DNA of 64,000 nt from Bacilli bacterium (GTDB taxonomy: Bacteria; Bacillota_I; Bacilli_A; RFN20; CAG-826). The stretch's first letter is position 1, and every line of letters begins with the position of its first letter. Both the position numbers and the translations under genes were made by a program. The stretch covers positions 131,239-195,238 of the forward strand of contig JBJEDT010000025.1 of NCBI GenBank assembly GCA_051872335.1, read 5' to 3'. Positions 60,366 through 61,967 of this stretch are shown in pieces. The notes under the pieces were generated by a model. It was not told where the DNA came from. It searched no databases and saw only the letters and a list, made by a program, of their open reading frames with translations.

Positions 60366-61967
60366 TTAACAATTAGGTAAAACTGTTTTAATAAATTTTA
60401 CCTTTAATAAAGGCTTTCTATTTTTCCAATCATCTTCACAACTGCCATGAGCGCCATACTCTATATAAATAGTATTACTTGTCAATAATTGTAACGGAAT
60501 CTCTCCAATATAAAATTCTCTTCTTCCATAAGTAGTAATTTTATCTGAACCACCATATTCATAATCTGTTTTCGACCACAATAGACTTGTTTCGTTTGGT
60601 CTGGCATATGCATAGAACTCTTGATATCCGTGGTCTACTTCTTTGATTTCTAACGACAAGGTTATTTCAGCCTTAGTATATCCTTTACTATATAATGTTG
60701 AAATATTATAAAAATCGGTATTTAAAACAAATTTATCTGAGTCTTGATATTTAGCACCACTATCTCTAATTGTAAATTCAATATCATTTGAGTTTCCACG
60801 CATTTCAGAGTAATAATTTTTTTCAAAATTCATTCCCAATGATGCATAATCAATTAATCCAAAATCATCGATACAAATATTATACTGTTCAAAATATTTT
60901 ATAAATGCATTTTTGATTCTATTAACATTTATTTCTGTATTTAATGAACTTGGTAACATTTCCCATAGAGGTATAACTTCTTTAATATCAGTCATCACAC
61001 AGTTTGTAAAAGTAACACCATTAAACAAATTATTAATATTATCTACATATTCGTTTTCATTTCTGGAAGTGATTACATTAGTACTACCTGCAACACAATA
61101 ATATTCTGAAGAAATAAACTCAGTACTTAATGATGTTTCATTAGCAATATTAGCTTTTACATCACTAGTTCCTTCAACTTTAGAACCAGATACACTAGCA
61201 CTAATAGATGATTTTAATGTAGCGTCATTAATTGTACTAAAATCATATTTTTCTGATTTTAGAATATAGTATACATCACGGAAAGCACCATAAGATGCAG
61301 TTTTAACAAGATGAGTACCATAGTTTGAAAATAAAGATAAGTAACCATCAAAAGTATTTTTTTCTAAAGCTCTAGATAAATCAATAATATAATCTTCATC
61401 AAGATGATTATTTAATGTATTTGATGATGTGAGTTTATTTACTGAAAATGTATAAAGATTTTTTACATCTTTTTGATTGAAATAGTATTGGCTTCTATAT
61501 TTATATATATCAGAAGTATTACTCGTCTCAATTGCATTTTTTGCACCAATATCAATACATTTAATGCTTATGCCTCCCACAGAAGCAGTTCTACTATAAG
61601 AAGCTTCTAGTTTCGTTTTAAATTCGGATACTTTTGTTGTGGTAATATATCTTGAACCTTCAGTATTATTACCACTAGTAGCAGTATCTATATATGAATT
61701 AACACTAGGAAGCAATGTATTTTGTAGATAGTCAGCTTCTACTACAAAGGTAGTTTTTGTATAATTTGTATTTCCGAGATCTGCCTGAACTAAGTCTATG
61801 CCCATTCCGATACCAGAGGTATCATATGAATTGTTACCAATAGTAGTTTCTCGATTAAAAACATAATCATTCTTAGTTATTCTAGGACTTTCATTATAAC
61901 TAATTGGATTCGCAAAATATAACAAAGATCCCGTTAGAATAACTAATCCGCAAATTTTCATTTTCAT
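60366..61967 (-). CDS. Secreted protein with a MACPF/perforin-like signature (putative pore-forming protein)
   Basis: Sec signal peptide. LSLFSNYGTHLVKTASYGAF matches the MACPF signature (Y/W)G(T/S)H(F/Y)x6GG loosely. Flanking Ser/Thr-rich alternating segments resemble the membrane-inserting TMH1/TMH2 regions. Confidence 0.45.
   Translation of the reverse strand: MKMKICGLVILTGSLLYFANPISYNESPRITKNDYVFNRETTIGNNSYDTSGIGMGIDLVQADLGNTNYTKTTFVVEADYLQNTLLPSVNSYIDTATSGNNTEGSRYITTTKVSEFKTKLEASYSRTASVGGISIKCIDIGAKNAIETSNTSDIYKYRSQYYFNQKDVKNLYTFSVNKLTSSNTLNNHLDEDYIIDLSRALEKNTFDGYLSLFSNYGTHLVKTASYGAFRDVYYILKSEKYDFSTINDATLKSSISASVSGSKVEGTSDVKANIANETSLSTEFISSEYYCVAGSTNVITSRNENEYVDNINNLFNGVTFTNCVMTDIKEVIPLWEMLPSSLNTEINVNRIKNAFIKYFEQYNICIDDFGLIDYASLGMNFEKNYYSEMRGNSNDIEFTIRDSGAKYQDSDKFVLNTDFYNISTLYSKGYTKAEITLSLEIKEVDHGYQEFYAYARPNETSLLWSKTDYEYGGSDKITTYGRREFYIGEIPLQLLTSNTIYIEYGAHGSCEDDWKNRKPLLKVKFIKTVLPNC

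Follow-up and report, generated by a model that had tools for sequence, protein, structure and literature searches.

The MACPF superfamily is central to animal immunity and to a few bacterial toxins, and work on its bacterial members has been almost confined to Gram-negative lineages; a 2010 survey lists such proteins from Chlamydiae, Bacteroides, proteobacteria, actinomycetes and cyanobacteria, and none from Firmicutes (PMC2954219). Toxins of the Mpf class, namely GNIP1Aa of Chromobacterium piscinae (PDB 6fbm), Mpf2Ba1 (8b6u/8b6v) and Plu-MACPF/Mpf1Aa1 of Photorhabdus (2qp2), join the MACPF domain to a beta-prism/beta-tripod C-terminal domain, for which a target-binding role has been proposed. 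A second group is formed by the BSAPs (Bacteroidales secreted antimicrobial proteins), whose producers are protected by a resistant receptor variant and are not known to rely on an ABC system. BSAPs are lipoproteins with a surface-export signal, found in Gram-negative Bacteroidales; the C-terminal domain of BSAP-1 alone has been shown experimentally to be the receptor determinant, and the C-terminal domains of BSAP-2, BSAP-3 and their relatives are DUF5648 beta-alpha propellers (PMC12853789). Here we describe a MACPF gene in a low-GC monoderm, located on a 64,000-nucleotide stretch (the window) of contig JBJEDT010000025.1 from a metagenome-assembled genome (MAG) labelled Bacilli bacterium (GCA_051872335.1). 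Its product ends in a C-terminal domain (CTD) of a different kind, and the gene lies between two genes for ABC-ATPase/FtsX fusion proteins. In the reading that we favour, at a probability of roughly 0.55, the protein is a Sec-exported pore former directed to its target by the CTD, and its ABC partner acts outside the membrane, most likely in immunity of the producer.

The protein is most like the Mpf-type toxins and the BSAPs, and a member of neither group, since the fold of its CTD differs from both and it has no lipoprotein signal. It shares with GNIP1Aa, Mpf2Ba1 and Plu-MACPF the two-domain build of a bacterial MACPF protein, and the first two are its closest structural relatives; in place of the beta-prism/beta-tripod, however, it carries a predicted jelly-roll. 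With the BSAPs it has in common a conserved MACPF domain followed by a variable C-terminal domain, an association with gut anaerobes and a plausible part in interbacterial competition, but it bears a plain signal peptide and a jelly-roll instead of a propeller, and it comes from a Bacilli-labelled MAG. Eukaryotic MACPF proteins (perforin-1, C6-C9, MPEG1) show the same signature motif and fold, and the same oligomerisation and helix-to-hairpin refolding would be expected of them and of our protein; their accessory domains (C2, TSP, LDLRA, EGF, MABP) reveal no kinship beyond the MACPF domain. Among Firmicutes the MACPF/CDC superfamily is classically represented by the cholesterol-dependent cytolysins (CDCs), secreted Gram-positive pore formers with a distantly related core fold. 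We rejected assignment to the CDCs, as the thiol-cytolysin model gave no match at E<=1 and a CDC fold with its domain 4 was not seen.

By profile and by predicted fold, the protein belongs to the MACPF superfamily. It matches the Pfam MACPF model (PF01823) over aa 150-307 with 29.0 bits and E=1.5e-6, where the gathering score is 21.5; the match is well beyond chance. When 1.84 billion cluster representatives were searched exhaustively with HMMER, 260 relatives emerged at E<=1e-3, 78 of them at E<=1e-10. When the query was aligned with 61 full-length relatives (n=62), 60 of the aligned sequences matched Pfam MACPF individually (best E=2.5e-20), and the family profile in turn matched the solved structures of GNIP1Aa (8.8e-17), Plu-MACPF (3.6e-14), perforin (2e-12), C6 (1.8e-12), Mpf2Ba1 (1.2e-11) and C9 (2e-10). 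The ETX_MTX2, aerolysin and thiol-cytolysin models, searched with the query protein, gave nothing at E<=1.

A preliminary description, made from the letters of the DNA alone, had proposed a secreted MACPF/perforin-like protein on the strength of three segments, which we locate at aa 206-234 (FDGYLSLFSNYGTHLVKTASYGAFRDVYY), 126-152 (RTASVGGISIKCIDIGAKNAIETSNTS) and 253-284 (SSISASVSGSKVEGTSDVKANIANETSLSTEF); the profile matches and the modelled topology support the proposal. The first segment had been read as the signature (Y/W)G(T/S)H(F/Y)x6GG with two glycines changed to alanine. The YGTH core stands, but only one glycine is replaced: the query reads Y216-G-T-H-L220-VKTASY-G227-A228, keeps G217 and G227, and departs from the literal pattern at 228 and, through leucine, at 220. 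Position 228 is Gly in 50 of the 62 aligned sequences and Ala in eight, the query among them, position 220 is V, L, I or M in 56, and the family consensus, YGTHxIxxAxYGG, retains both final glycines. As far as the alignment goes, both deviations sit at positions that tolerate change within the family.

The AlphaFold2 prediction made from the family alignment (mean pLDDT 80.2, pTM 0.67) has four long strands, with one helical cluster (aa 113-150) lying between strands 1 and 2 and a second (aa 248-278) between strands 3 and 4. Such a bent four-stranded sheet with two flanking helical clusters typifies the MACPF fold. The second and third segments, two Ser/Thr-rich stretches put forward as the membrane-spanning hairpins TMH1 and TMH2, both coincide with these modelled clusters and remain candidates for that role. 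Their supposed alternation of polarity held up for the candidate TMH2 (beta-moment p about 0.01-0.02 against shuffled sequences) and not for the candidate TMH1 (p about 0.3), where amphipathic alternation was not significant.

The same description had assigned the protein a Sec signal peptide, and its N-terminus, MKMKICGLVILTGSLLYFA followed by NP, does have the expected layout of a Lys-rich n-region and a 14-residue hydrophobic core on inspection of the sequence; an equivalent hydrophobic N-terminus is present in 60 of the 62 family members. Inspection of the N-terminal MKMKICGLVILTGSLLYFANP revealed no lipobox. We regard it as nearly certain that the protein is secreted and of MACPF fold, and we consider it probable that it forms pores. 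An identical protein in NCBI (MGM9858485.1), encoded on a 213-kb contig, already bears the annotation 'MAG: MAC/perforin domain-containing protein [Bacilli bacterium]'.

The part of the protein that follows the MACPF domain is covered by no Pfam or NCBIfam model, and its profile found no relative among PDB sequences (best E 0.27). A dedicated model of the CTD, built on a 47-sequence alignment (pLDDT 90.2, pTM 0.84), predicts a jelly-roll beta-sandwich with lectin, TNF and CBM domains as its nearest folds. In the search of the representatives, many proteins without a MACPF domain matched over the CTD stretch only. Among the 150 best of the 260 representatives there were 72 compact MACPF+CTD proteins (up to 600 aa), 35 proteins consisting of the CTD only (up to 260 aa), 22 with another head before the CTD (261-700 aa), 12 giants (over 700 aa) terminated by the CTD, three long proteins with MACPF and CTD set apart, and five with MACPF only. 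For six representatives and four loci we read the N-termini of CTD-only proteins, and they carry genuine signal peptides; the giants bear BspA-type LRR_5 repeats, Listeria-Bacteroides (Flg_new) repeats and alpha/beta-hydrolase domains. Its predicted fold class and its modular distribution speak for the CTD being a binding module, whose ligand could be a carbohydrate, a glycolipid or a protein. Several representatives (P0038, P0048, P0067, P0101, P0122 and others) contain tandem CTD pairs or CTD halves that match separately; the domain is evidently able to duplicate and may have an internal two-part structure.

The two genes that enclose the MACPF gene, at distances of 9 nt (upstream) and 19 nt (downstream), encode paralogous ABC-ATPase/FtsX fusions with 31% identity. 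The upstream gene crosses the right edge of the window and is completed as an 883-aa ABC_tran+FtsX product by the Logan contig L001, which is 100% identical to the window. A listing of open reading frames (ORFs) gives 61977-63875 as a complete 632-aa ORF initiated at TTG, while the frame is in fact open to the window edge; since L001 shows the 883-aa fusion, the listed start is an artefact. In the downstream protein, Pfam matches and hydropathy place the nucleotide-binding domain at aa 1-230, a first transmembrane (TM) helix at about 261-279, an ectodomain of about 480 aa and three FtsX TM helices within 765-880. Both proteins follow this MacB layout, with TM1 near aa 260, and in both the Walker A, signature and Walker B/Glu motifs are intact.

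On this architecture the ABC partners belong to the type VII class, together with MacB, LolCDE/LolF, FtsEX, YknYZ, AS-48EFGH and YtrEF, with which they share a four-TM FtsX-type permease whose ectodomain lies between TM1 and TM2. Their TM bundle matches LolF, MacB, LolE, YtrF and FtsX at E values of 2e-10 to 7e-6, and the best NCBIfam match of the ATPase, below its cut-off, is the ABC family of lactococcin-972-type bacteriocins. In sequence, the ectodomain is where they differ from MacB: searches of Pfam and of PDB sequences detected no kinship with the periplasmic core domain of MacB (MacB_PCD), no other Pfam family and, apart from a partial alignment to YtrF, no PDB match. The ectodomain of MacB is also less than half as long. 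Tripartite MacAB-type pumps have an adjacent MacA/HlyD adaptor, whereas no MacA/HlyD or biotin-lipoyl-like family was matched among the neighbouring genes of the window or L001.

The spacing of the ribosome-binding sites and a terminator-like hairpin 3' of the downstream ABC gene, both given in Table 1, indicate that the ABC-MACPF-ABC genes form one transcript. The hairpin had been overlooked by a consensus scan because its stem has few G-C pairs.

Is this arrangement peculiar to the window? We gathered related loci (numbered with the prefix L) from the contigs of the closest relatives, 26-31% identical to the query, and from a degenerate-DNA scan for the CTD motif in GTDB genomes and JGI metagenomes, and annotated them with local hidden Markov models (HMMs) of the MACPF region, the CTD and the ABC partner; a single-protein search of the GTDB genomes had found no related locus. 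In 13 of 13 distinct compact MACPF-CTD loci with downstream DNA (the window, L002/L008, L003, L004/L005, L006/L007, L009/L029, L010, L011, L014/L033, L034, L035, L036 and L039), the MACPF-CTD gene is followed immediately, in the same orientation, by a homologue of the ABC partner gene. These partners align over their full length, ectodomain included, and the other flanking genes differ between loci. L003 has a second ABC copy upstream, as does the window, L039 has two copies downstream, and L013 has two tandem ABC genes beside a CTD gene that is cut by the locus edge. Named sources of the module include MAGs labelled Acholeplasma sp., Tenericutes, Mycoplasmatota, Bacillota, Bacilli and Clostridia. 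Divergence of the CTD correlates with that of the partner's ectodomain and TM region (Spearman 0.67, Mantel p=2e-4), which shows that the two have been inherited as one unit; they need not be in physical contact.

The same ABC family also stands directly downstream of proteins of about 200-220 aa that consist of a signal peptide and the CTD (L017, L038, L019/L027 and L024). What the ABC gene is linked to appears to be the CTD, with or without a MACPF domain. In Pumilibacter muris CLA-AA-M08, the only cultured organism among the loci found, a 63-aa CTD remnant (L012:3720-3911) directly precedes an intact 719-aa ABC gene with a shortened ectodomain. The MACPF gene of L010 is split into two ORFs. 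These cases, with which L030:449-670 is grouped, could reflect gene decay in which the ABC gene was retained. We consider it very probable that the ABC partner is functionally coupled to the MACPF-CTD protein. The module is not a known defence system, as PADLOC reported only generic ATPase and radical-SAM similarity, and a degenerate CTD-motif scan of viral contigs found no match and so gave no sign of phage origin.

We propose the following mode of action. The exported protein, a soluble monomer, would bind a glycan, glycolipid or protein on the surface of the target cell through its jelly-roll CTD, by analogy with the C-terminal domains of BSAP-1 and of the Mpf toxins; bound monomers would oligomerise, and the helical clusters at aa 111-158 and 239-284 would, as in other MACPF proteins, unfurl into beta-hairpins and build a membrane-spanning barrel. 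The likeliest targets would be microbes in the vicinity or, in anaerobic gut and sediment, eukaryotic cells. The ABC partner would not be the exporter that carries the toxin across the membrane, because Sec does the exporting. As in other type VII systems, ATP hydrolysis would instead drive work at the outer face of the membrane via the large ectodomain, most likely by pulling CTD-bound monomers off the producer's own membrane before they oligomerise and so protecting the cell from itself. The paralogues that flank the toxin gene may form a heterodimer.

We rank producer immunity first among the possible roles of the ABC partner, if only tentatively, because type VII proteins act on extracytoplasmic substrates by mechanotransmission and Gram-positive members of the class protect against endogenous toxins, with YknXYZ against SDP and AS-48EFGH as examples (PMC5985334). 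The match of the ATPase to a bacteriocin ABC family, albeit below the cut-off, points the same way. An intact ABC gene beside a decayed CTD gene, as in Pumilibacter, supports immunity as well, for it is what one expects of an orphan immunity gene. Acholeplasma and other Tenericutes lineages are wall-less, so in the members of these lineages that carry the module a secreted membrane binder would directly reach the producer's own membrane.

Several points weigh against this proposal. The function assigned to every family member is deduced from its sequence, and pore formation is a prediction; some MACPF proteins are reportedly non-lytic. The query itself has Ala228 at the second signature glycine and Leu220 at the F/Y position, and its candidate TMH1 lacks significant amphipathic alternation. 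ABC-mediated immunity is to our knowledge documented for peptides, and we know of no such case for pore formers of about 55 kDa. The CTD-only proteins cannot form pores and yet adjoin the ABC gene, so that immunity to pores alone leaves them unaccounted for. Because the loci are related by descent, the 13 of 13 do not amount to 13 independent events. No ABC gene is adjacent to the giant CTD proteins of L020 and L022, to the 600-aa Flg_new+CTD protein of L025 or to the 676-aa N-extended MACPF-CTD protein of L026. Finally, the proposal does not account for a radical SAM/SPASM maturase gene at the operon head in two loci, L001 and L003.

The CTD-only proteins are the reason to favour a second possibility, that the ABC partner serves deployment. 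The CTD would then be a docking tag for the ABC ectodomain, and the ABC protein would hold and later release, activate or hand over its cargo by ATP-driven mechanotransmission, with MACPF as one of several cargo heads. The linkage that tracks the CTD, through CTD-only and ABC pairs in L017, L019/L027, L024 and L038, speaks for this possibility, as do the co-divergence of the CTD with the ABC ectodomain and TM region and the action of type VII proteins on extracytoplasmic protein partners (PMC5985334). Analogies may be drawn with FtsEX controlling PcsB, CwlO or EnvC, with LolCDE extracting lipoproteins and with MacAB expelling the Sec-delivered enterotoxin STII. However, the co-divergence can be explained by shared descent alone, the docking of CTD and ectodomain is a prediction, the Pumilibacter locus fits immunity better, and no ABC gene is adjacent to the CTD-only genes of L015, L016, L028 and L037 or to the larger CTD proteins of L020, L022 and L025. 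On balance we judge deployment, the main rival of immunity, rather unlikely, though slightly less so than its broadest form, in which the CTD is the recognition tag of a type VII ABC protein with a new 480-aa ectodomain and the whole an unrecognised system of Bacillota and Mycoplasmatota, wall-less lineages included, for holding, releasing or activating Sec-exported effectors on the cell surface. There, MACPF would be the commonest cargo and the CTD-only protein another, and in one subclade the radical SAM/SPASM enzyme may modify a component. That wider proposal strikes us as doubtful.

We find it improbable that the MACPF protein is non-lytic and serves adhesion, nutrient acquisition or surface remodelling, next to an ABC protein with an unrelated role in the envelope. 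Such roles have been proposed for some MACPF proteins of bacteria and eukaryotes, and Plu-MACPF and Bth-MACPF are not known to be lytic. The function of Bth-MACPF has been called unknown (PMC2954219). The unclear amphipathicity of TMH1 and the presence of the CTD on adhesin-like LRR/Flg_new proteins would also suit a non-lytic protein. Against it, the signature residues are strictly conserved over 62 divergent members, both helical clusters are retained at lengths that suit hairpins, TMH2 is significantly amphipathic, and GNIP1Aa and Mpf2Ba1, which the protein resembles most in structure, are active toxins that form pores.

The radical SAM gene raises a further alternative. About 630 nt past the right edge of the window, on the operon strand, L001 carries a 440-aa radical SAM/SPASM peptide-maturase-like gene (L001:6012-7334), whose counterpart at L003:3931-5205 is 50% identical, which is more conserved than the MACPF proteins. 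In L001 only 5 nt separate it from the first ABC gene, and with a strong ribosome-binding site and a preceding terminator-like hairpin it seems to be the operon head; in L003 the distance is 67 nt. Among NCBIfam models, that of the PapB ranthipeptide maturase matches it best, with 157 bits where the cut-off is 340. The maturase might make a ribosomally synthesised and post-translationally modified peptide (RiPP) that the ABC protein exports or confers immunity to, with the MACPF gene as a passenger, and the position of this gene upstream of the first ABC gene in both loci is what recommends the idea. We think it very unlikely: the gene is missing from all other MACPF-ABC loci examined, ABC adjacency persists in 11 distinct loci without it, and a search upstream of it for a small Cys-rich precursor ORF found none. 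The maturase may act on one of the operon's own proteins. The four closest family members (the window, P0009, P0010 and P0011) share a Cys near residue 325 ('NC[VSA]', C325 in the query) and a C-terminal Cys (..PNC, ..TKC, ..SKC; C533 in the query), and more distant members in the same alignment (A2) lack both; the pair could form a disulfide or be a modification site tied to the radical SAM enzyme.

The preliminary description had named an aerolysin/ETX-MTX2-type beta-pore-forming toxin as the alternative, and this we reject as having a negligible chance of being right, since the Ser/Thr-rich amphipathic stretches are all that speaks for it and both the HMM searches and the predicted MACPF fold are against it.

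The suggestion made there that a Firmicute MACPF protein would be uncommon agrees with the literature, in which the 2010 survey has no Firmicutes, and disagrees with sequence space, where we count 260 representatives and find automatic MAC/perforin annotation in place. The MACPF identity was thus already known from public annotation. The novelty lies at the level of the family, in a CTD that no model covers, a type VII ABC partner with a novel ectodomain, and the lineage; the CTD and the ABC partner genes are more informative than the features to which attention had been drawn before. Our literature search found no paper linking MACPF with Mollicutes or Tenericutes, and none linking MACPF or jelly-roll proteins with FtsX/MacB-type transporters. 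The locus defines a sizeable unstudied MACPF family in low-GC lineages, monoderm and wall-less, many of them gut-associated. Should immunity be right, an ABC system would for the first time be seen to shield its owner from a giant-pore toxin, and MACPF warfare in Bacillota and Mycoplasmatota comparable to that of the BSAPs in Bacteroidales would be indicated; should the ABC protein be a device for release or activation, the mechanotransmission of MacB, FtsEX and LolCDE would extend to toxin deployment. The CTD merits a domain model of its own, and the toxins are candidate narrow-spectrum antimicrobial or biotechnological pore formers.

Table 1. Features of the MACPF locus, in coordinates of the 64,000-nucleotide window; domain limits and hairpin-forming segments are predictions.
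Feature	Position	Strand	Remarks
Upstream ABC-ATPase/FtsX fusion, 3' two-thirds	61977..64000	minus	full gene 883 aa, crosses window edge; partner-ectodomain HMM E=1.7e-165
Ribosome-binding site AGGAG of MACPF gene	61974..61978	minus	overlaps upstream TAG stop, 6 nt before ATG; read from sequence
MACPF + CTD gene	60366..61967	minus	ATG start, 533 aa, TAA stop; NCBI MGM9858485.1
Signal-peptide-like N-terminus	61911..61967, aa 1-19	minus	MKMKICGLVILTGSLLYFA; no lipobox; single helix aa 2-19 in AlphaFold model
MACPF domain	60873..61850, aa ~40-365	minus	core bent-sheet strands 103-110, 159-175, 219-238, 285-294
Helical cluster 1, candidate TMH1	61494..61637, aa 111-158	minus	helices 113-125, 140-150 between core strands 1/2
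MACPF signature YGTHLVKTASYGA	61284..61322, aa 216-228	minus	G217, H219, G227 in 62/62; T218 in 61/62
Helical cluster 2, candidate TMH2	61116..61253, aa 239-284	minus	helices 248-259, 270-278 between core strands 3/4
C-terminal jelly-roll domain (CTD)	60378..60836, aa ~378-530	minus	motif YGAxGxxxDDWxN
Ribosome-binding site AGGAG of downstream ABC gene	60358..60362	minus	11 nt before ATG, 3 nt after MACPF stop
Downstream ABC-ATPase/FtsX fusion	57656..60346	minus	896 aa; Pfam ABC_tran 1e-30 + FtsX above cut-off
Intrinsic-terminator-like AT-rich hairpin + U-tract	57606..57645	minus	dG -13.2 kcal/mol, z = -3.98, 0/200 shuffles as stable

Two genes follow 3' of the terminator-like hairpin. The first encodes a 183-aa lipoprotein (lipobox LLTSC; 56871-57422, minus strand) without a Pfam or NCBIfam family, and we exclude it from the module because of its position beyond the hairpin and because none of the related loci has a homologue. 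The second encodes a cytoplasmic 413-aa protein with eight Sel1 repeats (55571-56812, minus strand). A 452-aa Sel1-repeat protein occupies the same relative position in Pumilibacter muris (L012:63-1421, minus strand; phmmer E=3e-49, a score that repeat proteins reach easily), and the gene was not seen in the other related loci. The Sel1 and NAD synthase genes converge, and the DNA between them contains a perfect palindromic hairpin of 12 bp (55538-55565) which, with its T-runs on either strand, has the look of a bidirectional terminator.

The GC content of the window is 22-35%, and its ordinary chromosomal genes (Mfd, NAD synthase, rubrerythrin, a SpoIIE-type phosphatase) fit an anaerobic Firmicute; the genome had been called clostridial-type, a term at odds with the Bacilli label of its source in NCBI. 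The SpoIIE-type PP2C phosphatase domain forms the C-terminus of a 717-aa protein (27488-29641, minus strand) and hints at a sporulating Firmicute or a descendant of one. An AbiEii-type nucleotidyltransferase toxin gene (Pfam 8e-30; 51772-52638, minus strand) has directly upstream an unannotated 195-aa gene (52640-53227, minus strand), possibly the cognate AbiEi antitoxin, in which case the two would make up a toxin-antitoxin pair of type IV or an abortive-infection pair. The ORF of the glutamine-dependent NAD synthase (CN_hydrolase + NAD_synthase; 53328-55532, plus strand) is listed from a TTG and has about 100 additional residues at its N-terminus. The first 60 or so of these (..IKPITELRDTTALSKEINESNEPIFITKNGNLDFVMMNEHTYKSI) resemble a Phd/YefM-type antitoxin and could be either a domain fused to the enzyme or the product of a small gene of its own in the same frame.

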